A DNA stretch of 64,000 nucleotides, taken from assembly GCA_963169855.1 (NCBI GenBank), contig CAUJCN010000002.1, positions 452,885 to 516,884 on the forward strand. Direction: 5' to 3'. The translations under genes were made by a program, and so were the position numbers. Shown here in pieces: positions 30,733-51,573 of this stretch (position 1 is the first letter of the stretch; the number at the start of each line of letters is the position of its first letter). The notes under the pieces were generated by a model. The model searched no databases, was not told where the DNA came from, and saw only the letters and a program-made list of their open reading frames with translations. The DNA comes from Patescibacteria group bacterium. Its GTDB lineage: Bacteria > Patescibacteriota > Dojkabacteria > J137.

Positions 30733-32007
30733 ATGCCAACAATTACAGAATTACCAAAGAAAAGTATTACAACAGAGATTCCGCAGAAAAAATCAAAGAT
30801 AGTTCAGAATGTGACTTTCTTTGGAGATTCAGCAATTCCAGAAGGTGATGCGATTTATAATTCAGTTTTTGATGCAGCGAAATTGCTTGCAACAAATGGA
30901 TATACAATTGTAGATGGAGGCGGCCCTGGAATTATGAAAGCAGCAACAGATGGAGCGGAATCAGTAAATGGCAATACTGTTGCGGTTTACTGGGAACCAA
31001 AATTAGCAGCTTTTTTTGAAGGGAAGAATCTAGCAAACCTTGCCGATAAATCGTTAGCAGAATCTAACTATGTGATGAGAACTTTTGGTTTAATAGAACA
31101 GGGAGATGTTTTCGTTGTGTGCAAAGGGGGAACAGGAACAATTTCCGAATTTGGATTAGTTTGGTGTTTAGGAAAACTATATTACGGATGCCACAAGCCT
31201 GTAATTTTATATGGAGATTTTTGGGACGAATTGATTGCCGCATTTCAGAAAACTATGTATATAGATGATGTCGAAATGGCTGTATTGCATAGAGCAAAAA
31301 CGCCAGAAGAATTAGCTGAGTTAATAGAGTCTTTCGAAACAGTATTCGCACACTGCGTTACTGTCGATAACAGAGCTTCAGACGAATTGGCATTCATTAT
31401 AAATGCAAGGAGAGACAAAACTGCAGAAAGTTACGACAAATTTGCATCAGAATATCATGCTTCAAGAATTGGAACACTGCCTTCTCAAACACAGTTGGAT
31501 GAATTCATTGAGCTAGTTCATTCCCCAGCTAGAGTCTTGGATATTGGTAGCGGAACCGGTCAAGACATTGCTTATCTTTCTCAAAAATATTCTACTGATG
31601 GATTAGAAATATCTAAGCGAATGGTTGAGATTTCTAAACTTGAAAGTCCTCACAGCAATATTGTTCAAGGTGATTTAGTAACTAAAGATATCGGTACAAA
31701 TAAATACAAAGGAATTTGGAGTAGAGATGCTATTCATCATATTCACGAAGAAGAATTAGACAATGTTTTCAAAAAGATTTCTAACGCACTTGTGGAAGGT
31801 GGAATCTTCTACTGCTTGGTTAGAGAAGGTGAAGGTGAAATCGTGGAGAATGAGGATAAAGGATATGGAAAAATGGAACGTTTCTATCATTTATTTTCAT
31901 CTGCAGAATTAATCGAGAGAGCAGAGAAGGCAGGGTTAGAATTAGTAAAGTTAGATAGAAACAAAAGAAGTCACATGTGGTTGATTGGAGTCTTCAGAAA
32001 AAAGTAA
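30733..32007 (+). CDS. Fusion protein. The N-terminal LOG-family (TIGR00730-like) Rossmann domain is joined to a C-terminal class I SAM-dependent methyltransferase.
   Basis: LOG motifs VDGGGPGIMKAATDGA and VCKGGTGTISEFGLVW. The methyltransferase motif I VLDIGSGTGQDIAYL and a post-I acidic region follow later. The gene lies 3 nt downstream of the epimerase-like gene. Confidence 0.55.
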   Translation: MPTITELPKKSITTEIPQKKSKIVQNVTFFGDSAIPEGDAIYNSVFDAAKLLATNGYTIVDGGGPGIMKAATDGAESVNGNTVAVYWEPKLAAFFEGKNLANLADKSLAESNYVMRTFGLIEQGDVFVVCKGGTGTISEFGLVWCLGKLYYGCHKPVILYGDFWDELIAAFQKTMYIDDVEMAVLHRAKTPEELAELIESFETVFAHCVTVDNRASDELAFIINARRDKTAESYDKFASEYHASRIGTLPSQTQLDEFIELVHSPARVLDIGSGTGQDIAYLSQKYSTDGLEISKRMVEISKLESPHSNIVQGDLVTKDIGTNKYKGIWSRDAIHHIHEEELDNVFKKISNALVEGGIFYCLVREGEGEIVENEDKGYGKMERFYHLFSSAELIERAEKAGLELVKLDRNKRSHMWLIGVFRKK

Positions 32008-33362: not shown

Positions 33363-34280
33363 ATGTTAAAAAATTTAGTAATAGCTGTTGTAGTTATTGC
33401 GTTGGTAGCAGGAGCTTTTTCGATTATTAACGGGCAAAAAAAAGATTCTTTTTTCTTAATCCGAGAAGAAGGCGATATCTTTTTTAAAAATACTGAGACG
33501 GAGTCTTACCTAACACTTTCTCAAGACGAGATTTCTCTTCAAAATGGTAGTTATATTAAAACAGGAGAATTCTCTTCGGCACATGTTATTCTTCCAGATA
33601 ATACTGTAATTTCTTTAGACGAGAAGACTGAATTGCAAATCAATCTTGCAGATGAAGGAATCGAGATCTTCCAGTTTCTTGGAAAAACATGGAATAGGGT
33701 AGAAACACTTACAAACGGAAAAAAATTCGAAATTAAATCTGGCGACGCCGTTGCTGCAGTTAGAGGAACAATTTTTCACTTTGAAGTAAATGCCGATGGG
33801 ACAAAAGGAATAAAAGTTGTCGAGCACTCAGTTGCGTTAAGCAATACTGCACAGGAGATTCTTACTAATGAAGAGGAGAGTGGAGTTGTTAGTGTTGAGG
33901 GCAAAATTACCAAAGGGACTATTCCAGAATCATTCTTGAAATCAAGATGGTATATCAGAAATAAAGTTTTGGATCAAATTAAACGAACAGGATTAGATAA
34001 TATTTTTTTGAAAGACAAGATTAAAAAAGAATTTATTAGGGATGAGCTAGTTCAGACTAGATTCAATATCAAAGATACTAGTGTTCAATCTTCTTTATTA
34101 TCTATTGTTATTGATACAAGTGACTCGACTGTTTGTTCGAAAACTGCAGAAATCCCTCCTTATGTGAAATACTCTAAATTTGGTGAATTATATGAAGCTT
34201 TCCTAGGAAGTTGTGCTGATAACAGACTCGAAGAAGTTGAAATCAAGGAATTGGCAAGAATCTACGCCACAATAAAATGA
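33363..34280 (+). CDS. Membrane-anchored protein with a possible FecR-like domain
   Basis: N-terminal TM VIAVVVIALVAGAFSII. The beta-rich segment ...GDAVAAVRGTIFHFEVN resembles FecR-domain strands. The gene overlaps the downstream cyclase gene by 4 nt. Confidence 0.35.
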   Translation: MLKNLVIAVVVIALVAGAFSIINGQKKDSFFLIREEGDIFFKNTETESYLTLSQDEISLQNGSYIKTGEFSSAHVILPDNTVISLDEKTELQINLADEGIEIFQFLGKTWNRVETLTNGKKFEIKSGDAVAAVRGTIFHFEVNADGTKGIKVVEHSVALSNTAQEILTNEEESGVVSVEGKITKGTIPESFLKSRWYIRNKVLDQIKRTGLDNIFLKDKIKKEFIRDELVQTRFNIKDTSVQSSLLSIVIDTSDSTVCSKTAEIPPYVKYSKFGELYEAFLGSCADNRLEEVEIKELARIYATIK

Positions 34281-36175
34281 GAAGAATAGGGATCTACCTA
34301 CTCATCTGCATCTTTGTAATTCCAATCGTTCTATCAGAACCGATAAAAAATTTAAATTTTCTTTTTACTGATAGACTTCATAATTCTGAACCACGCTCAG
34401 AAATTGTTGTCGTTGGGATTGATGATAAGTCACTCCAAAATATAGGTGCTTGGCCATGGAGTAGAGGTGTATTTGCAGATTTTTTGGGTAATCTGATGGA
34501 AGTGAATCCATCTGTAGTTGGGTTCGATGTGATTTTTGGAGAGAGCAGAGAAGGTGATTTAGAACTTCAAAATATTATAGATGTGAATCCAAATAAAATT
34601 GTTTTTGGAAGCAAAGTCATTGATAACAACGAAGTCATAAAACCGGTTTTTAATGTCGCTTCCGGATACGTCAATTTTGTCCAAGACGAGGACGGCAAGA
34701 TTCGAAGAAATACTCCTTTTACTGTGATCGACTCGGTTTGTGAAACCAGTTTCTCATTCAAAATTTTTCTGAGGTATCTTTTTGTACAAAATTTTGTGTG
34801 CGACGAATTAAAATTGAGGAACAAATTTTATCCTTCCGTAAACAATCGTGTTTCTCCAGAATTTACAAAAGAGCAGTTTAAAACAATAAGTTTTGTTGAT
34901 GTTCTAAACAAAAATTTTAAATCTGAGGATTTTAAAAACAAGATAGTTTTGGTGGGTTCCACAGCCATCGATCTTCGTTCAAGTTTAAACGATAATTTTA
35001 CCGATATTTTTGGAAATGCAGTTCCAGGAGTTGCGATTCATGCCAATATTATTAATGGATTTTTAAACGATGATTTACTTAAAGAAGTGGACTACAGTTA
35101 TTCAATTTTGATTCCTCTTTTAATTTCGGTATTTCTATTTGCTATATTTACTAAGTCGGCAAACAAGACTTTGAATCTTTGGTTATTTATAGTTTTGTTC
35201 GTGATCTTGAATCTGATTCTATTGGTTGCAATTGAATTCAATTTCTTACCTGATTTCGTAACTCCTAATGTTTACTTAATCCTTGCATTCGCTTCTTCAG
35301 TTATTCTTAAGTTTTTTGTTCAAAAGAAAGAAAAAGAGTTTGTTGAATTGGCATTCGAACAGTATATGAACAAGAAATTATTGAATGAATTAAAGAAGTC
35401 CCCTCATAAACTGAATCTTGGAGGAGAGACTAAAGAGATCAGCGTTCTATTTAGTGATATTCGAGGATTTACATCTATTTCTGAAAAATTGGATGCTCAT
35501 GGGTTGATTACCTTCATAAACAGTTACTTGGAACACATGAGCAAAATAATTTTGGAGAACGAAGGAACTATCGATAAATATATTGGAGATGCAATTATGG
35601 CTATTTGGAATGCACCTATTGATGTTGTAAATCATGCAGAATTTTCTGTTTTAGCAGCTTTAGCAATGCAAGAAAGCACAGAACAATTTTCAAGTAAGTT
35701 TCCAAATCTACCTAGAATTAAAATTGGAATCGGAATAAATACTGGGAATGTAGTTGTTGGAAACCTGGGTGGGTCGATGCGGTTTGACTACACTGTTATT
35801 GGTGACGATGTTAATTTAGCTTCGAGAGTAGAAAGTCTTACTAAAAAGTATAATTGTACGATTCTGGTGACTGAGAATACTAAAAAGTTGGTTTTGAATG
35901 AAAATATTAAATTTAGGCAAGTAGACGAAGTAATCGTAAAGGGCAGAAGTACCCCGGTCAAAGTTTACGAACCTTACATTGAAGAACGCCCATATTTCAC
36001 TATTTATGAAAAAGCATTTGTATTCTACCAAAATGGAGATTTTCAAGAATCGATTAATGCTTTAAAATCCATCTTAGAAGATCCTGTATCTCAAACTCTT
36101 TTGGAGAGATGCGAAAACCTTATTTTAAATCCACCAAAAGATTGGAATGGATGTTGGGAATGGGACGAAAAATAA
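34277..36175 (+). CDS. CHASE2-sensor membrane-bound class III adenylate/guanylate cyclase
   Basis: An N-terminal TM and periplasmic CHASE2-like region is followed by 3 TM helices. The cyclase catalytic domain then has VLFSDIRGFTSISE...YIGDAIMAIW...GINTGNVVVGNLG...YTVIGDDVNLASRVES. Confidence 0.75.
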   Translation: MRRIGIYLLICIFVIPIVLSEPIKNLNFLFTDRLHNSEPRSEIVVVGIDDKSLQNIGAWPWSRGVFADFLGNLMEVNPSVVGFDVIFGESREGDLELQNIIDVNPNKIVFGSKVIDNNEVIKPVFNVASGYVNFVQDEDGKIRRNTPFTVIDSVCETSFSFKIFLRYLFVQNFVCDELKLRNKFYPSVNNRVSPEFTKEQFKTISFVDVLNKNFKSEDFKNKIVLVGSTAIDLRSSLNDNFTDIFGNAVPGVAIHANIINGFLNDDLLKEVDYSYSILIPLLISVFLFAIFTKSANKTLNLWLFIVLFVILNLILLVAIEFNFLPDFVTPNVYLILAFASSVILKFFVQKKEKEFVELAFEQYMNKKLLNELKKSPHKLNLGGETKEISVLFSDIRGFTSISEKLDAHGLITFINSYLEHMSKIILENEGTIDKYIGDAIMAIWNAPIDVVNHAEFSVLAALAMQESTEQFSSKFPNLPRIKIGIGINTGNVVVGNLGGSMRFDYTVIGDDVNLASRVESLTKKYNCTILVTENTKKLVLNENIKFRQVDEVIVKGRSTPVKVYEPYIEERPYFTIYEKAFVFYQNGDFQESINALKSILEDPVSQTLLERCENLILNPPKDWNGCWEWDEK

Positions 36176-42071: not shown

Positions 42072-43958
42072 CTACACTTCTTGAGGCCGGAGCTCCAGTT
42101 GGCTAAGAATACCATCGATGTATGATAGGCATTCATCTTTCTCTTCTATTGGACTTTTCTCGAAGAATGTCTTTAGTGCTTCCAGCTGAGTAATTAGTGA
42201 TTCGATTATAATATCTCTTTCTGCTGGGAATTGTTCAATTTCTAAATCGAATATTTCTACCCACATATCAATAAATGCTAAGTAGTGAGGTTTTTCAGAA
42301 TCCACCAAATTATACTTTTTTGCTGCATCATACATTGCGTCAATCATCCCGGGATAAAGAACCGTTGGCACAGCGTGTAGTTTTGATTGTTGTTTTCCAA
42401 AATCAGATCTTCCTACAATCCCGAAGTTATATCCTGCATCGATTTCACCTTCTTCTCCAGTTAATCTTGAATGTCCACCTCCATCTGGGCCTATTAATTC
42501 GTAGTTTGTGAACAAAGTCCACATTAATGCAAAAACTACATCAATCCCTTGTTCAGTTAGTCTTTTTATACTATCGAACGCTCCTTCTAAATATTTAACT
42601 TTGTCGTTTAACCTATGTGCTCCAATATCAGCTCCAAATTCTGTAAGTGCGAATGCGTTAATTTGAGGGAAACGTTTTTTTACACTCATTATCACATCAT
42701 AAATTCTCGATGAATTTAAAAGTTGACCGTGTGTTCCTTTCATTGGAGCAACAACTTTTGGATTTTTCTTTTTAGGAGAAGTGAAGGGGAGTTTTAAAAT
42801 CTTTTGAGCGAATTCTTCTATAAGTGTAACCTCATGAATCCAATAAGGTTGAACTCCCAGAACATCGAAGTACATAAGGTCTTCGTGTTGATACATTCGA
42901 ATCTGCATGGTTTTGTCGAAATATTCCGCGAACCATTTCAGAATCTGGTGACCTGAAATTGTCGCGTTCTGAGTATCAAAGTAAGCCATGTTGATTGCTG
43001 TCATGACTGTGACTTTCGTTTCGTTTTCATCCGCAATTAGCTTTGCTAACATGTAAGTATCCTTGGCTACTGACGACATATTTGATTGTCCTTCGAAAAA
43101 TCTAACTAGATTTTTATCATACGGTTGCCATCTTCTTCCTAAGTAACGTGAATCAAGTTCAACATTTGGTTCATTGATTACTATAAAGTTCTGAACACCT
43201 GCAGGAATCAATTCTTGTAAAACGATGTTTGCATATTTTAAAAACTTTGCTCGAATCGACCCAGTTGCCCATTCTGTTTGAGATCCTGTAACAATCTGTT
43301 GAATTGTTTTTACAAGTTTCCCAGGAGTTACGGTTTCGTCTACCCACTGGATACCTTCGGGTAAATCGAAATGATGAAGAACAACAACAGGTTCTAATCC
43401 GTAACGAAGACACATTTCCGCGTGACGTTTGTATCTTACTAATTCTTGCAAGTCCACACCCTCTGGTGTCATCACTTTTTCCCACACTATGCTGAATCTA
43501 AAAGCCTTCAATCCCATTTGCACAGCTACAATCAAATTTTTAGCGAACTCAAGATCTTCTTCCATCTTCATGGATTGGTCTAAGGAAAGCTCTGATTTTA
43601 ATTGTTCTATTTCTTGCTCGGAAAGATGTCTTCTTTCTGCAATTCCTTTAATAATTCTATCGAAATTTGATTCTTCATCTCCCACCTTAAATCCTCCTTG
43701 TGGATGTGTTCCCACATGAAGTTCTGCAATTCCAGCACCCAGAACAGTTGAGTCTGGAATGTATGAATTTAGAAAGTAGTCCTGAAATAATCTATCTGCT
43801 TCTCCTACAGATTGTGCTGACGAAGTATATCCAAGAAATTTATTCTGAAGTTTTGCAGCGAGTCGAGGATTGGCAATACGATTTCCGTATTTAAGATTAA
43901 AGTGAAGTTTAAGTTCACGTTCGGATAAATTGGTCGCAACTACTTCAGAATTATTCAT
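42072..43958 (-). CDS. Glycoside hydrolase family 1-like protein with an N-terminal extension of about 130 aa
   Basis: GH1 hallmarks are present: AFRFSIVWEKV (compare YRFSISWSRI), HHFDLP (compare HWDLP), the NEP acid/base motif in FIVINEPNV, and a TENG-like nucleophile motif LTEFG. Confidence 0.45.
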   Translation of the reverse strand: MNNSEVVATNLSERELKLHFNLKYGNRIANPRLAAKLQNKFLGYTSSAQSVGEADRLFQDYFLNSYIPDSTVLGAGIAELHVGTHPQGGFKVGDEESNFDRIIKGIAERRHLSEQEIEQLKSELSLDQSMKMEEDLEFAKNLIVAVQMGLKAFRFSIVWEKVMTPEGVDLQELVRYKRHAEMCLRYGLEPVVVLHHFDLPEGIQWVDETVTPGKLVKTIQQIVTGSQTEWATGSIRAKFLKYANIVLQELIPAGVQNFIVINEPNVELDSRYLGRRWQPYDKNLVRFFEGQSNMSSVAKDTYMLAKLIADENETKVTVMTAINMAYFDTQNATISGHQILKWFAEYFDKTMQIRMYQHEDLMYFDVLGVQPYWIHEVTLIEEFAQKILKLPFTSPKKKNPKVVAPMKGTHGQLLNSSRIYDVIMSVKKRFPQINAFALTEFGADIGAHRLNDKVKYLEGAFDSIKRLTEQGIDVVFALMWTLFTNYELIGPDGGGHSRLTGEEGEIDAGYNFGIVGRSDFGKQQSKLHAVPTVLYPGMIDAMYDAAKKYNLVDSEKPHYLAFIDMWVEIFDLEIEQFPAERDIIIESLITQLEALKTFFEKSPIEEKDECLSYIDGILSQLELRPQEV

Positions 43959-43960
43959 TA

Positions 43961-44395
43961 TTATTGTTCTACTTGAACTTGTGGAGTTTCTTTTCTTAGT
44001 AGTGGCTCAACTCCAATTACTCGACTTCTAACAGCTTTAACTAAAGCTCCTACAGACAGGAAGTTCTGTTGTTGAAATCTAATTCTGACTGAAGTGTCTG
44101 GATCTATGTTCTTCACTCTTTGTAGTACTTCTTCTGTAAGTTTTGCTAAATTTGAGAAATCACACCCTGCGAATAAACCTCTTAATTCTCTTCTTAATCC
44201 TGCTATATCATCAGAAGCTACGAATTTTGGATCTTCAATTAAATCATCGATTGATCTACCTAAATTATCAGATAAACTGTATTCTTCTTGTTTTGGTAGA
44301 CTATTTCTTCTTTGAGCTTCTTGATTAGCAGCTTCAGCAGCTCTGTGAGCATTTACAGCAGCTTGTGTTTCTGGAGAGGCAATATAAGGATACAT
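43961..44395 (-). CDS. Hypothetical protein (144 aa)
   Basis: Intact ORF 2 nt upstream of the GH1-like gene, probably co-transcribed with it. Confidence 0.4.
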   Translation of the reverse strand: MYPYIASPETQAAVNAHRAAEAANQEAQRRNSLPKQEEYSLSDNLGRSIDDLIEDPKFVASDDIAGLRRELRGLFAGCDFSNLAKLTEEVLQRVKNIDPDTSVRIRFQQQNFLSVGALVKAVRSRVIGVEPLLRKETPQVQVEQ

Positions 44396-44472
44396 GTTAT
44401 TAGTTAATCATTTATTACTGGCAACAAAAAATTGCTCTAAGTTATACCATTTTGAAAGAAAATTTGTAAACC

Positions 44473-45018
44473 TTATTTGAGTTTATTGTAGATTTCGAAG
44501 GATAGAGGAGGAACGTTCTCTGGTAGATTTTCCGAAGTGACTAATTCCCAAATCTGTTCACCATCTGAATCCTTCATATCTACAATGTCGAAACTTACAT
44601 CCCCTTCGAAATCTTGGTAAATTCTAGTAACGTAGAATTGATCAATCAAGTTATGCCTCAGTGCTAAATTGTAAATTTCTGCACCTCCTATAAACCATGA
44701 TTCTTCTCCCCATTTATGTTTCATTTCTTCTAAAAGGTGTTTAAGCTGATCTATAGATGAAACTACGAATGTGTTTCTAAAACCTTTCTCTTGAACATAA
44801 TTTTCTAACTTTTCGGGATTTCTTGTCATTACTATATTTGGTCTTCCCGGTAACTCTCTGCCCATTCCGAATAGAGTACTGCTTCCCATAATTACTGGAT
44901 GCCCCATTGTTAAATCCCTAAACTTCTTCATGTCTGCATCAATTCTTGGCCAAGGGAGCTTTCCTTGATTTCCAATTACACCGTTTTGGGCAACAGCCAT
45001 TATTGCATTGAACTTCAT
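44473..45018 (-). CDS. folA: Dihydrofolate reductase
   Basis: AIMAVAQNGVIGNQGKLPW...DLTMGHPVIMGSSTLFGMGRELPGRPNIVMTRN matches the DHFR N-terminal fold. Length 181 aa. Confidence 0.8.
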   Translation of the reverse strand: MKFNAIMAVAQNGVIGNQGKLPWPRIDADMKKFRDLTMGHPVIMGSSTLFGMGRELPGRPNIVMTRNPEKLENYVQEKGFRNTFVVSSIDQLKHLLEEMKHKWGEESWFIGGAEIYNLALRHNLIDQFYVTRIYQDFEGDVSFDIVDMKDSDGEQIWELVTSENLPENVPPLSFEIYNKLK

Positions 45019-46847
45019 ACCTGTGCGATTTGATAAATTTGATTTAGCTCGAATCCTCTTTTTGCATAGTATTCTCGAGTCCCGATACTAGAGATTACCG
45101 CAAGCTTTGAGAAACCTTTTTCTTTCGACATTTCTTTTGCTTTCTCAATCAACTTTGTTCCTAAGCCTAAGTGTTGAGCTTTACCTTCTGACTCTTTCCC
45201 AAGTTCGAGGCTTGGTCCATAAACATGGACTTCTCTGATAATTGCAGAGCCATTTAGTTCCTCTACAACTTCGTTTTGATGATTTTTTGGAATTGATAAT
45301 CTAAGGAATCCAGCGATTTCTTTTTTAAGAGTTACGTATTGAAGAAAGTACTCTGTAGCTACAGTTGTATCGTATTCAACAATATCTAGGCTTAAATCTT
45401 CCAAACCTACCTTTTTCCCTTTGATTTCTCTCGCTCGAATATTTTCGTTTTTTCTTCCTTCTTTTTTAAGTTTGAATTCTACAGCTTCTCTTAGATTTGT
45501 CGTCTTGTTTCCACCTTCAATTTCTGTAGATGGAATATCTCTAATAATTCTTGTAAGTCTACAATACTCAGGAGTGTACTCAATTAAGTTTGAAAGTAAG
45601 TCGATCAATTCTTCAGTCGTATAAGGAGTATAGAAGCCATCTAGAAAATGTTTATACAATTCAGTGTTCTTGATAACTGATGTTGGGTAAATTTTTAGTT
45701 CATCTGGTTTGAAGTCTGTAGAATCAAAAAGTTCTTTGTAAACTTCCAAATCAATTTCTGGAGTTGATTTGTATAAATTTGGCATCATATGACCGTGAAT
45801 TTTAAATCCAGCAGAGCGGAGTAACTTGAAAGCTTCGACTACATCGGACTTTAATTCACCTCTTTTGTTTGCAATGCTTACTTCATCATTTAAAGTTTGA
45901 ATTCCAATTTGAACTTTTGTTGCTCCAAGTTTTCGCATTCTTACCACCTCTTCTTTGTTGATGACTTCAGGACGAGTTTCCAAAACTAAACCTACGCATC
46001 TAGTTTTGCCTGCTGAGTTAATATCATGTTGCTGATATAAAGATTCCCAAGTAACATCTTCTTCTCTTACAATATTTTTCCCAAACAATTCTTTATATTC
46101 TGGAGTTACTATTAACTGGTTGTAAGGCAAATCTCCTTTGAGTGCACGAATCTGTGAATTAATATCTTTTTGAAGTTCAATTTTGATTGGATTATCGATT
46201 GGTTTATCATCTTCGTTTGGGGTGTAGTTGTTTATTCCAAAATCGTTCATGGCTCTGAAACATTCGTGGATGAACCATATTTTGTATTTTTCTGTGTAGA
46301 AAGACCAAGTTCCTCCTAAAATCAAAAGCTCAATTTTTTCTGTTGGGTGTCCTGTATTTCGATAAGCCATCAATCTGTTATAAACTTGCAGATATGGACT
46401 AAATCGGTTGTACATTGCTCTTTGTGCTCCTGGTTCCGAAGCAATGTAGCTTTTTGGCATAGTAACATCGTTTGGGCAGAAAATACATCTTCCTGGGCAA
46501 GCAAAAGGTTTGGTTAATACTGTAACTGTAGTTACGCCAGAAATAGTTCTGGTTGGCTTCATTCTAATCTGGTGAATGATTTCCGCTGCCGAATCTTTAT
46601 CGATTTCGTCGTTTAAAGCTAAGTATTCAAAACCTCTAACAACGTTGTCTTTACTAAAAACTCCTTTCCCATCGCGCGGGAATTTTCTTAAGATCTTTTC
46701 GAACTTTTCGTCATCGATATCTTCTGTTTGTAGAAGAGCGTTAAAAATATTCAAAAGCTCTGGCTTATAATTTTCAGGACTGAATTGGTACATCTGCATG
46801 GGGGTAATTATATAGCAGGAAGGACAAATATTGAATTGTAAAATCAA
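45015..46847 (-). CDS. elp3: Elp3-like radical SAM / GNAT tRNA wobble-uridine modification enzyme (elongator protein 3 homolog)
   Basis: The radical-SAM cluster motif CPGRCIFCPND and a C-terminal GNAT acetyl-CoA motif (Q/R-x-x-G-x-G/A, here HLGLGTKLIEKAKE) are present. An N-terminal extension of about 90 aa is present. The gene overlaps folA by 4 nt. Confidence 0.75.
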   Translation of the reverse strand: MILQFNICPSCYIITPMQMYQFSPENYKPELLNIFNALLQTEDIDDEKFEKILRKFPRDGKGVFSKDNVVRGFEYLALNDEIDKDSAAEIIHQIRMKPTRTISGVTTVTVLTKPFACPGRCIFCPNDVTMPKSYIASEPGAQRAMYNRFSPYLQVYNRLMAYRNTGHPTEKIELLILGGTWSFYTEKYKIWFIHECFRAMNDFGINNYTPNEDDKPIDNPIKIELQKDINSQIRALKGDLPYNQLIVTPEYKELFGKNIVREEDVTWESLYQQHDINSAGKTRCVGLVLETRPEVINKEEVVRMRKLGATKVQIGIQTLNDEVSIANKRGELKSDVVEAFKLLRSAGFKIHGHMMPNLYKSTPEIDLEVYKELFDSTDFKPDELKIYPTSVIKNTELYKHFLDGFYTPYTTEELIDLLSNLIEYTPEYCRLTRIIRDIPSTEIEGGNKTTNLREAVEFKLKKEGRKNENIRAREIKGKKVGLEDLSLDIVEYDTTVATEYFLQYVTLKKEIAGFLRLSIPKNHQNEVVEELNGSAIIREVHVYGPSLELGKESEGKAQHLGLGTKLIEKAKEMSKEKGFSKLAVISSIGTREYYAKRGFELNQIYQIAQV

Positions 46848-46865
46848 ATTTCCAATCTCAAATAT

Positions 46866-47273
46866 CTAAAGATGCTTCCATGTAGTTAGGTTGTACTTCT
46901 TCAACATGGCTCCGAATATCCTTGTTAGCTGTTTAGACTCATCCAATAGTTGGTCAATAATCTCTGATTCTTCCGCGGAGTTTTTAATAATAGTTAACCA
47001 CAAAGTGGATTCTTTGGACTCCTTCCTACAAATTTGAATCCTATATACAAAATCATTTTTACTTATACTTTCGTTTGCTTCGATGAAGTTAGCAGCTACT
47101 GAACCCGAACTTCTAATTAGTTGTTTAATATCATCGGCATTTGAAATATAGATTTTTAGAGATTTAATAAAAATTCTTATATTTATTGCAAAGGTTGTAG
47201 TTCTTTCTATGAGATCATAGTTCATTCCAGTATAATAACCTCTAGTAGAACACTGCGCTTTGTAATACAGCAC
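46866..47273 (-). CDS. Four-helix-bundle protein of the 23S rRNA intervening-sequence protein family
   Basis: ERTTTFAINI...QLIRSSGSVAANFIEANESISKNDFVYRIQICRKESKESTLWL matches the family signature (QL.RS..S...NIAEG..R.S.KDF..FL.IA.GS..E...). The true start is probably MNYDLIE. Confidence 0.5.
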   Translation of the reverse strand: MLYYKAQCSTRGYYTGMNYDLIERTTTFAINIRIFIKSLKIYISNADDIKQLIRSSGSVAANFIEANESISKNDFVYRIQICRKESKESTLWLTIIKNSAEESEIIDQLLDESKQLTRIFGAMLKKYNLTTWKHL

Positions 47274-47328
47274 AAGAGTTGGAAATTATTTTTGATATTG
47301 GACATTCGATATTTGATATTATCTTTAT

Positions 47329-47994
47329 ATGAAACTTTACGATGAACTAGCAACCGACTTCTCAAATTCTAGAGCTTACCCATGGAAAGGTTGGGGAAAA
47401 GTAAAAGAATATGTAGAGTCAAACTTTACAGAATCTGTGTCCGTTTTGGATTTGGGTTGTGGTAATGGCAGATTTCTTCAGTTTTTAATCGATCAGAAAA
47501 TCAATTTCGCTGATTTTGTTGGCATAGATAGTTCAGACGAATTATTAAAAATTGCAAAAGAAAGATATTCAGACAATGCCGAATTCATTTTCGCGGATTT
47601 AGAAACTGACTGGGAAACAAAGATAATAGAAGAGATACAGGATCCAGTCCGATATGATGTGATAGTTCTTTTTGGAGTAATGCATCACATATCTTCTTTC
47701 GAAAAGAGAGTAGAGATTTTAAGAAAAGCTAGGTCGAAATTAAAGGAAAACGGGGTGATAATGGTAACTTACTGGCAATTTGGAAGTTATCCAAGATTTA
47801 CAGATAAAGCAGAAAATCTTGGCAATAACGACTACATGCTTTCATTTAATGGGGAGAGTGGAGCAAGATTTTGTCATTTTACAGATGAACGCGAGGCAGA
47901 AAAGATTGAAGAGGATTCTAACTGTGAATTAATTTCTTCGTACTATTCTGATGGAGGAGATGAGAAATTGAACTTATACAGATTCTACAAATGA
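47329..47994 (+). CDS. Class I SAM-dependent methyltransferase
   Basis: Motif I VLDLGCGNGRFLQF, the post-I acidic residue and motif II (DVIVLFGVMHHI) are present. Confidence 0.6.
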   Translation: MKLYDELATDFSNSRAYPWKGWGKVKEYVESNFTESVSVLDLGCGNGRFLQFLIDQKINFADFVGIDSSDELLKIAKERYSDNAEFIFADLETDWETKIIEEIQDPVRYDVIVLFGVMHHISSFEKRVEILRKARSKLKENGVIMVTYWQFGSYPRFTDKAENLGNNDYMLSFNGESGARFCHFTDEREAEKIEEDSNCELISSYYSDGGDEKLNLYRFYK

Positions 47995-49565: not shown

Positions 49566-49913
49566 ATGCTTCCATCAGAAGACGAATTAATTGCAAATGC
49601 TGAGAAACTACTTTCAGAAGAAGGAAAGCTGAAATCAGGAGAGCAGAGTACCGAAGAAGCATTTAGAGAATTCATTCTTCCAGCCTTAAAAAGTTCTAAA
49701 GACACATTGCACACTATTTATTACAAAGGGTTTGTAAAAGATAGACCGAGTTTTTTTGGAAAATTGAAAAGAATGATTCAAATGAAAATAGTAAATTCTG
49801 TGATTGCGACAATCGAAAAGCAGAGTCAGAAACAACAAAAATTCAACGAACTAACCTATAGAAGTATCGAAATTCTTGTAGAAGAGATCGAGAATTTAAA
49901 AAAGAGTAAATGA
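49566..49913 (+). CDS. Hypothetical protein (115 aa)
   Basis: Intact ORF overlapping the downstream HIT-like gene by 4 nt. Confidence 0.35.
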   Translation: MLPSEDELIANAEKLLSEEGKLKSGEQSTEEAFREFILPALKSSKDTLHTIYYKGFVKDRPSFFGKLKRMIQMKIVNSVIATIEKQSQKQQKFNELTYRSIEILVEEIENLKKSK

Positions 49914-50427: not shown

Positions 50428-51573
50428 TTAATTCTTCTTGTACAATTTGAACTTCCTGGAATCCCCAACAATAATTATTTCGGAAAGAAAGTACGGTAAT
50501 TTATCAAAGAAGTGTGGATCCAAAGCAGAAATTACTGCACTCCATTCAATCACTACTATATTATTTGGAACGAAATACTCTTTAAGTCTCAATCTCTCCA
50601 AATCTTCTTTTTCTTTAATTCGCCACGCATCTATATGAATCAACTTTCCTCCGTTGTTTAGTGGATATTCATTTATGTAATTATATGTAGGTGATTTAAC
50701 AACTCGTTCAATACCAAACTGCTGAGCAATTCCTTTTGTGACATGTGTTTTTCCGGCACCCATCTGACCGTCTAAAAGAACAACCTTTGGATTATTTTGT
50801 TGAGCTAAGAGCTCTCCAACTGCCTTTCCAATCTCAATTGTTTCATCTACATTCTGAGACCCAAGATCTTGAATATGCGTTAATTCTGTTGGATTGATTC
50901 TTCCAGAACGATGAACGACCAAATCTTCCGACGAAAAGTCTAAAACAGTTGATGGAGGATTATGAGGTAATTCGTAACCTGGGTCTATTATTGCGTCTAT
51001 TAAGTTAAGTTTAGACTCAGGTAATTTCGCTAAGATGCTTTCTACTGAATAGGGCATAAAACTTCCATCCGAAGCTATAGTTGTCGTAAGTGGATTACCT
51101 AAGAATTGGATAAGTTCTAGAACTTCGGAAAAATTTGGGATTCTGATAGCCAAAGTTCCATTTTCAGCAGGCAATCTTGCATCAGTTTTGCCAAGTGATT
51201 TACCTACAATCGTTACTGCGCCAGGTGTAAAGTTCTTAATTGCAGTTGAAATTTGAGAAGTTACATCTATAAATTCACCTGCCATTTCTAATCCAGAAAC
51301 TGCTACTGGAATAGATCTTCCTAAGATTCTATCTTTAAAATTCAAAAGTTTTGTTACAGCTTCTTGATTATCTGAATAGCAACCCAGGGCAAAACAAGTA
51401 TCGGTAGGGTAGGCGATTAACCCACCATTATCCAAAACCTGCTTAATTTGAATTTTCCAATCGCTTGTTCCATTAAGTTTAATCACTTCCATTCTTGAAT
51501 ATATATGTTTTTCTGTATAAAATATGATCAGTATTATATTTTCATGTTGAGAAATTACAAAATACTTGCACAA
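50428..51573 (-). CDS. Fusion of t6A-biosynthesis proteins. The N-terminal YrdC/Sua5 (TsaC) domain is joined to the C-terminal P-loop ATPase TsaE (YjeE).
   Basis: YrdC region WKIQIKQVLDNGGLIAYPTDTCFALGCY. TsaE region VVLLDGQMGAGKTHVTKGIAQQFGI...SPTYNYINEY...IHIDAWR (compare LxGDLGAGKTT...SPTFTL). The probable true start is MEVIKL at 51492. Confidence 0.6.
   Translation of the reverse strand: MCKYFVISQHENIILIIFYTEKHIYSRMEVIKLNGTSDWKIQIKQVLDNGGLIAYPTDTCFALGCYSDNQEAVTKLLNFKDRILGRSIPVAVSGLEMAGEFIDVTSQISTAIKNFTPGAVTIVGKSLGKTDARLPAENGTLAIRIPNFSEVLELIQFLGNPLTTTIASDGSFMPYSVESILAKLPESKLNLIDAIIDPGYELPHNPPSTVLDFSSEDLVVHRSGRINPTELTHIQDLGSQNVDETIEIGKAVGELLAQQNNPKVVLLDGQMGAGKTHVTKGIAQQFGIERVVKSPTYNYINEYPLNNGGKLIHIDAWRIKEKEDLERLRLKEYFVPNNIVVIEWSAVISALDPHFFDKLPYFLSEIIIVGDSRKFKLYKKN

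Follow-up and report, generated by a model that had tools for sequence, protein, structure and literature searches.

A long-form Elp3 in a Dojkabacteria genome has a Trm9-like methyltransferase, not dihydrofolate reductase, as its conserved gene partner

We analysed a 64-kb stretch of DNA (64,000 nucleotides, referred to as the window) from contig CAUJCN010000002.1 of a Patescibacteria group bacterium, focusing on a gene for the tRNA-modifying enzyme Elp3 and on the genes that surround it. The window is bacterial, has a low G+C content (~35%) and carries rpoB and rpoC, and the named homologues closest to its genes belong to Candidatus Dojkabacteria and other Patescibacteria. The conserved partner of this Elp3 is a gene for a Trm9-like class I S-adenosylmethionine (SAM)-dependent methyltransferase, and not folA, the gene for dihydrofolate reductase (DHFR) that abuts it. 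As an overall reading we consider it reasonably likely that the two enzymes would form a pathway leading from 5-carboxymethyluridine (cm5U) to 5-methoxycarbonylmethyluridine (mcm5U), and that the junction with folA is incidental. In such a pathway, Elp3 would bind tRNA and cleave SAM at its [4Fe-4S] cluster, and acetyl-CoA in its lysine acetyltransferase (KAT) domain would then give rise to a carboxymethyl group on C5 of U34, forming cm5U; both steps are established for the family and are carried over here to the window protein. The divergently expressed Trm9-like enzyme may then, with moderate likelihood, methylate the carboxylate of cm5U with SAM, yielding mcm5U. Translation of folA from the same mRNA would proceed by reinitiation at an ATGA sequence and would have no functional relation to Elp3. 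These bacteria would thus possess a wobble pathway of the eukaryotic and archaeal type as a two-gene module.

Both elp3 and folA lie on the minus strand, elp3 upstream and folA downstream. An earlier note on this DNA, made from the sequence alone, was silent on the strand and missed the methyltransferase gene, which lies just outside the segment it described. The features of the locus, each with the evidence for it, are as follows.

44473–45018, minus strand: dihydrofolate reductase of the FolA type, 181 aa (Pfam DHFR_1, DHFRs in the PDB)
45015–45018, minus strand: ATGA overlap, formed by the elp3 stop TGA and the folA start ATG (sequence)
45015–46799, minus strand: elp3 coding sequence, 594 aa, likely from ATG to TGA (TIGR01211, PDB matches, the identical public protein P0001, starts of relatives)
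45159–45176, minus strand: acetyl-CoA motif QHLGLG, residues 542–547, in the GNAT/KAT domain (aligned to 'QHRGLG' of Dehalococcoides Elp3, DmcElp3)
45432–45449, minus strand: position of the Zn-binding CxCxxC, here N-E-N-I-R-A (alignment to C310/C312/C315 of DmcElp3)
46044–46241, minus strand: clade-specific insertion of ~65 aa, residues 187–252, in the radical-SAM domain (unaligned between two HMMER blocks against the Dehalococcoides, Methanocaldococcus infernus and yeast Elp3s)
46476–46499, minus strand: radical-SAM [4Fe-4S] motif CPGRCIFC with Cys101/105/108, Cx3Cx2C (codons checked)
46560–46799, minus strand: N-terminal region, residues 1–80, a predicted four-helix domain (AlphaFold2 model, position and length)
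46800–46847, minus strand: 16 codons from a mechanical TTG start, probably untranslated (N-termini of 21 relatives, public gene calls)
46866–47225, minus strand: gene for a '23S rRNA intervening sequence' (IVS) four-helix-bundle protein (Pfam 23S_rRNA_IVP, TIGR02436)
47329–47994, plus strand: Trm9-like class I SAM methyltransferase, 221 aa, divergent from elp3 (synteny, match to Yarrowia lipolytica Trm9)

To find relatives, one genome per GTDB species was searched by a pattern scan, which gave at least 600 candidate stretches; at least 589 species-level genomes encode a relative of this Elp3 type. The best 80 of these served as the set of related loci, with up to 6 kb of flank on each side where the contig allowed. 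They come from Patescibacteria (Dojkabacteria/WS6, WWE3 and Paceibacterota), many Anaerolineae/Chloroflexi, Myxococcota/'Deltaproteobacteria' and Acidobacteria, and their Elp3s are 45–88% identical to the window protein over the full length. All-versus-all clustering of the open reading frames (ORFs) at the 80 loci revealed the methyltransferase as the only widely shared real neighbour, the next real clusters being found at no more than 19 loci. Among the 72 testable loci, defined by an upstream flank of 700 bp or more, the methyltransferase was beside or near Elp3 in 39, either divergent and adjacent (35 loci) or in the same orientation at a distance of up to 2.5 kb (4 loci). By group, this was the case for 11 of 15 loci from Patescibacteria (the candidate phyla radiation), 14 of 15 from Myxococcota, Acidobacteria and others, and 14 of 42 from Chloroflexi. 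Viewed from the methyltransferase side, all four distant homologues checked (28–33% identical) had an Elp3-type gene no more than 3 kb away, which in three cases was directly divergent. The occurrence of the pairing over at least four phyla makes it unlikely that chance or a shared promoter alone maintains it. Elp3–Trm9 gene clustering is known in Sulfolobus (PMC2584109, PMC6144793), where Trm9 is gene-linked to Elp3 as the methyltransferase is here; no description of a bacterial pairing of Elp3 with a Trm9-like gene was found in the literature searched.

The earlier note had regarded Elp3 as rare in bacteria, a view that is outdated, given the species-representative genomes (at least 589) that carry this type. 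A 2020 review had placed bacterial Elp3 in Dehalococcoides only (PMC7663514). The long-form Elp3 is widespread in bacteria, which corrects the picture of bacterial Elp3 as a Dehalococcoides oddity. The protein itself is a further member of a known family, and NCBI and JGI already label such proteins Elp3.

The spacing between the two partner genes varies. In the window, the IVS gene (46866–47225, 119 aa in public gene calls) sits between the methyltransferase and elp3, and at the sister-species locus L004 this gene is missing and a plain 230-bp gap separates the two; the IVS gene looks like a recent insertion into the shared promoter region. In one lineage (L084/L085:1-4744), an ABC-type efflux cassette of three genes, encoding a membrane-fusion protein, an ABC ATPase and an FtsX/MacB permease, is inserted between Elp3 and the methyltransferase.

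We consider it moderately likely, judging from sequence comparisons, that the methyltransferase is a Trm9-type cm5U methyl-esterase. Its matches in Pfam (Methyltransf_11/12/25/31) are generic, as are those in NCBIfam, which cover class I only; NCBI names it 'class I SAM-dependent methyltransferase', and several homologues are labelled TRM9 by JGI. The AlphaFold2 model has a mean predicted local distance difference test (pLDDT) score of 92.9, and the SAM site LDLGCGNG contains the invariant D41, the counterpart of D72 in Saccharomyces cerevisiae Trm9 (ScTrm9). Y. lipolytica Trm9 (YlTrm9, chain 5cm2_Z) was the second-best PDB match to the single sequence and the only full-length PDB match to the family profile (E 6e-15, profile positions 22–217), and Trm9 showed the highest sequence identity among the structural matches, at ~23–27%. 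The methyltransferase domain of Trm9/ALKBH8 (5CM2; Haloferax HvoTrm9-Trm112) shares with the window protein the class I fold, the N-terminal Y...FSxxR and the HH, W and R residues. Throughout the family, the Trm9-specific N-terminal motif 'YxxxAxxFSxxR' is invariant, together with a W and an R outside the Rossmann core. The spacing from Y to R in this motif matches that of ScTrm9; the solved YlTrm9 chain is without that part. Residues essential for Trm9 activity are known from the mutagenesis of Létoquart et al. 2015 (PMC4678810) and include R29, H116, W145, W168, R241, Y243 and N271 of ScTrm9. HvoTrm9-Trm112 makes mcm5U in Haloferax (PMC6144793). The following residues of ScTrm9 have family-invariant counterparts in the window protein.

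ScTrm9 Y18: Y4
ScTrm9 R29: R15
ScTrm9 D72: D41
ScTrm9 H115/H116: H119/H120
ScTrm9 W145: W149
ScTrm9 R241: R180

There is hardly any doubt that the gene at 45015–46799 encodes Elp3, as the earlier note had proposed from a radical-SAM motif and a C-terminal GNAT fold; family models, PDB matches, motifs, pocket residues and fold all agree. The NCBIfam model TIGR01211 (ELP3) scored 477.2 bits against a cutoff of 350, and the next radical-SAM model, MnmL/YtqA, reached 53.6 bits against a cutoff of 180, with HemN/HemW-type models at 19–35 bits. A better alignment to a HemN- or MiaB-type family, which would have spoken for another identity, was not seen: HemN, HemW and MnmL stayed at 20–54 bits, and the acetyl-CoA motif is in place. 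A phmmer search of the PDB matched Elp3 chains only, the best being Dehalococcoides Elp3 (E 2.6e-92), with M. infernus at 1e-91 and yeast, human and mouse Elp3 at 1e-75 to 1e-77. Alignment to the Dehalococcoides protein confirmed the three cluster cysteines and the acetyl-CoA motif. The ORF contains the full motif CPGRCIFCPND, with the cysteine codons within 46476–46499; Cys101/105/108 align to C23/C27/C30 of DmcElp3 and are invariant in 21 relatives, as are Q542, H543, G545 and G547 of the acetyl-CoA motif. The GNAT fold is indicated by QHLGLG and by Pfam Acetyltransf_10/_1, whose matches at residues 556–600 of the 610-aa ORF score slightly under the gathering cutoffs. The acetyl-CoA pocket residues that Lin et al. 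2019 highlighted in DmcElp3 (K77, K193, E386 and Y441) correspond to K155, K333, E523 and Y577 here, all of them invariant in the clade. The AlphaFold2 model (pLDDT 84.3, predicted TM-score 0.82) retrieved Elp3 structures at Foldseek ranks 1–11 (E 3e-40 to 5e-33); biotin synthase came next at 9e-6, and HemN gave 1e-4 with a TM of 0.28.

From its sequence, this stand-alone Elp3 is probably an active enzyme. DmcElp3 (PDB 5L7J, 5L7L, 6IA6) is likewise a stand-alone bacterial protein with radical-SAM and KAT domains, Cx3Cx2C and the same pocket residues, whereas the window Elp3 has an N-terminal domain of 80 aa that DmcElp3 lacks, carries 65 inserted residues behind the 'CYDALNG' helix and shows N/N/A in place of the Zn-binding C310/C312/C315 that DmcElp3 keeps. 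The archaeal cluster motif (M. infernus, 6IA8/6IAZ/6IAD) is Cx4Cx2C, in contrast to Cx3Cx2C here. Eukaryotic Elp3 (yeast 6QK7/8ASW, human 8PTX) differs in that the window Elp3 is without the partners Elp1, 2, 4, 5 and 6. The clade is marked by an N-terminal region of the usual kind, here a predicted four-helix domain, by the ~65-aa radical-SAM insertion and by loss of the Zn cysteines.

The N-terminus, which the earlier note had described as about 90 extra residues, is ~80 aa long and is extra only in comparison with Dehalococcoides Elp3; its length is the norm for archaeal and eukaryotic Elp3. Residue 74 of the window protein aligns to residue 81 of the yeast and 72 of the mouse protein, which places the N-terminal length within the family norm, and it is only in DmcElp3 that the normal N-terminal region is missing (PMC6367351). 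Archaeal and eukaryotic Elp3s, like the window Elp3, have a region of ~70–90 aa ahead of the conserved 'KPxRTxSG'. When residues 1–111 were searched against the PDB with phmmer, residues 1–72 had no sequence match to solved Elp3s and alignment began only at residue 73; homology of the N-terminus therefore rests on position, length and structural superposition. AlphaFold2 places helices at residues 8–23, 30–39, 50–62 and 68–79 (pLDDT ~75–92). The best TMq values were obtained with tRNA-bound human (0.77) and yeast (0.75) Elp3, which have longer resolved chains (538 and 527 residues), and chains missing the N-terminus gave 0.59–0.68 (DmcElp3, 0.62). The model is consistent with the N-terminus being the structural equivalent of the tRNA-binding N-terminus of archaeal and eukaryotic Elp3. 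Its net charge is −5, versus +1 to +9 in most relatives. The archaeal and eukaryotic N-termini are basic and flexible, whereas the window N-terminus is acidic, predicted to be folded and without detectable sequence similarity to them.

The ~65-aa insertion in the radical-SAM domain is found in none of the solved Elp3s. In relatives it is kept but varies in length (~75–134 aa between anchors) and is mostly acidic, with a conserved YN and Trp; in the window protein it is acidic and modelled as helices with low confidence (pLDDT 55–77). The Zn-binding cysteines of the inter-domain linker, C310, C312 and C315 of DmcElp3 (Zn and Cys numbering from alignment and Lin 2019), are N451, N453 and A456 here, and they are missing in 21 of 21 relatives. 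Eukaryotic Elp3, like the window Elp3, is without these cysteines and yet active, and because of this the loss is a subgroup feature and not family-defining. Two shorter Elp3s of 530–534 aa (L089:145-1737 and L087:2396-4000) are paired with the methyltransferase and are without the insertion; CxCxxC is kept in one of them and absent in the other. This mixture of features indicates that the insertion, the Zn loss and the pairing with the methyltransferase are separable and evolved independently.

Several observations weigh against an Elp3–Trm9-like pathway. Over the Rossmann core, the uncharacterised archaeal methyltransferase 3dtn scores equal to Trm9. Besides being bacterial and only ~23–27% identical, the window methyltransferase differs from Trm9 at mutagenized positions: W168 of ScTrm9 is F172 (Trp in many relatives), Y243 is C182 and not conserved, and N271 lies outside the aligned region, with the nearly invariant N215 as its candidate counterpart. 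Eukaryotic and Haloferax Trm9 need Trm112, whereas none was detected for this enzyme: the 64-kb window yielded no Trm112-like ORF by regular expression or by tblastn, a weak search with an E. coli YcaR query, and ORF clustering across the 80 loci gave no small conserved neighbour cluster. The methyltransferase is not beside Elp3 in 33 of the 72 testable loci. On the side of Elp3, the insertion and the lost Zn site could change its activity, and the acidic N-terminus (−5) is unlike the described basic tRNA-binding N-termini. The 2020 review states that xcm5U derivatives have not been directly demonstrated in bacteria (PMC7663514), and the enzyme activities assigned to the clade are predictions from sequence.

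Much of this would also fit a class I methyltransferase with another job, acting on a different tRNA or rRNA position or on a small molecule, and lying near Elp3 through a shared promoter or some other tie. The generic Pfam, NCBIfam and NCBI assignments, the unconserved Y243, the lack of a detected Trm112 in the window or among the neighbours and the 33 of 72 loci at which the gene does not flank Elp3 are in keeping with such a role, but we consider it rather unlikely, as the pairing is kept over at least four phyla and with Elp3 subtypes that have or lack the insertion or the Zn motif, the family shows no variation in 'YxxxAxxFSxxR' or in the W and R that lie outside the Rossmann core, and Trm9 has the highest identity of the structural matches. 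It is much less probable still that the long-form Elp3 has functionally diverged and modifies another RNA position, makes another product or is inactive. An insertion inside the radical-SAM domain, the lost Zn site and an N-terminal net charge of −5 would be in line with divergence; however, every residue tested in the cluster motif, the SAM domain and the acetyl-CoA pocket is invariant, active eukaryotic Elp3 is likewise without the Zn cysteines, the fold matches tRNA-bound Elp3 (TMq 0.77), and the clade identity of 45–88% across phyla indicates selection.

Building on the proposed Elp3–Trm9-like pathway, we see about even chances that many bacteria, among them Patescibacteria, Anaerolineae, Myxococcota and Acidobacteria, contain a self-contained module, in which Elp3 and a Trm112-independent Trm9-like enzyme would produce mcm5U or a derivative of it, instead of or beside MnmE/MnmG. 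Roles that fall to accessory subunits elsewhere might here be taken by the clade-specific insertion of Elp3 or by its folded N-terminal domain. MnmE/MnmG, the canonical bacterial xm5U34 route, has the same target, C5 of U34, and the same decoding purpose (PMC7663514), but its chemistry, which involves a GTPase, flavin adenine dinucleotide and folate, is unrelated to the radical SAM and acetyl-CoA chemistry of Elp3. The Elp3–Trm9-like pairing across phyla leads to a testable prediction, the presence of mcm5U-type wobble uridines in these bacteria, and cultivable Anaerolineae or Myxococcota with the pair make this prediction practical to check.

The gene downstream of elp3 is a bona fide DHFR gene, and the 4-nt overlap reported in the earlier note is real (ATGA at 45015–45018). 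The ORF at 44473–45018 matched Pfam DHFR_1 (PF00186) with 115.8 bits against a cutoff of 25, and 95 distinct DHFR sequences in the PDB matched it at E ≤1e-10 (best 5e-22), in alignments that include LPW, the GG motif and the acidic residue of the active site. Its nearest other homologue is 38–46% identical (among 5.8 billion proteins). The elp3/folA arrangement is identical on every contig of this species. A promoter and terminator scan of 43800–47500 found no terminator in the elp3–folA interval, and its counts were not above shuffled expectation. Judging from the sequence, translation of folA is probably coupled to that of elp3 via ATGA, with no evident functional meaning. Of the 40 pairs of same-strand neighbours in the window, 5 show such an overlap of 4 nt, and the one at elp3/folA therefore reflects no more than a habit of this genome.

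Searching the 80 related loci by tblastn with the window proteins located a DHFR within 6 kb of Elp3 at one locus alone, that of the sister species (L004), whose Elp3 is 88% identical; as a direct adjacency, the linkage was kept at none of the 80. The L004 DHFR (L004:8700-9269) starts ~900 bp downstream of Elp3, with two small lineage-specific ORFs between, and the DHFRs of the two species are 29% identical, compared with 67–88% for the flanking genes. The window DHFR is a fast-evolving or replaced, orphan-like copy in a variable spot. The two extra L004 ORFs (82 and 159 aa; L004:7926-8697) have no homologue in the window or at other loci, which leaves a deletion here indistinguishable from an insertion in L004 as the direction of the junction change. 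A 144-aa protein of unknown function (43961–44395, minus strand) is 35% identical to that of L004; the spot between elp3 and the glycosyl hydrolase family 1-like gene is variable.

Because DHFR linkage was seen at 1 of 80 loci, overlaps are common in the window and no other folate gene was seen in the ORFs scanned, the abutment of folA is read as incidental gene packing, specific to this species and its compact genome, a conclusion in which we have high confidence. The earlier note had taken a folA–elp3 operon as a hint of a metabolic link between folate and tRNA modification, or simply of genome compaction, and the evidence favours the latter. We regard a functional operon that ties folate metabolism to wobble-uridine modification as extremely improbable. 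In its favour, ATGA puts folA directly behind elp3 without a separate strong ribosome-binding site, and every contig of the species has the same arrangement; the canonical bacterial xm5U34 pathway, MnmE/MnmG, is also folate-dependent. However, DHFR is missing from the Elp3 neighbourhood at 79 of the 80 loci, and the L004 copy is 29% identical and two ORFs away. The 36 window ORFs scanned included no further gene of folate or thymidylate metabolism, a set that leaves out the ORFs at 1–17 kb, a few shorter ones and 49566–49913. Moreover, the chemistry of Elp3 draws on SAM and acetyl-CoA and does not involve folate (PMC6367351). The folate–tRNA link is not worth pursuing.

The mechanically called Elp3 ORF, 45015–46847, starts at a TTG and is 610 aa long. 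Translation almost certainly begins at the ATG at 46799, giving 594 aa, because an identical 594-aa protein is public (P0001, present in NCBI and Logan) and relatives start at the homologous Met; the start 'MxxYxFxPxxYK' is found in 21 of 21 aligned relatives, and the gene calls of public contigs likewise begin at 46799. No Shine-Dalgarno-like sequence precedes this ATG (46800–46830, minus strand). A TATAAT hexamer ends 7 nt upstream of it ('...CTATATAATTACCCCCATG'), an arrangement that would fit a leaderless transcript or one with a very short leader.

Elsewhere, the 64-kb window contained no tRNAs or RNA families, and several of its protein-coding genes have unusual architectures. A single ORF at 50428–51573 (minus strand) joins Sua5/YciO/YrdC (TsaC) and TsaE domains and is a fusion of two components of N6-threonylcarbamoyladenosine (t6A) tRNA modification. 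In the product of the gene at 30733–32007 (plus strand), a LOG/SLOG ('possible lysine decarboxylase') domain is fused to a class I methyltransferase domain. The 628-aa protein encoded at 42072–43958 (minus strand) has a partial match to glycosyl hydrolase family 1 (best stretch 113–204) and is 75% identical in the sister species. At 34277–36175 (plus strand), a CHASE2 sensor is fused to an adenylate/guanylate cyclase, and the upstream gene, which encodes a FecR domain, overlaps it by 4 nt; the CHASE2-cyclase/FecR pair forms a signalling module, in a genome that is otherwise reduced.

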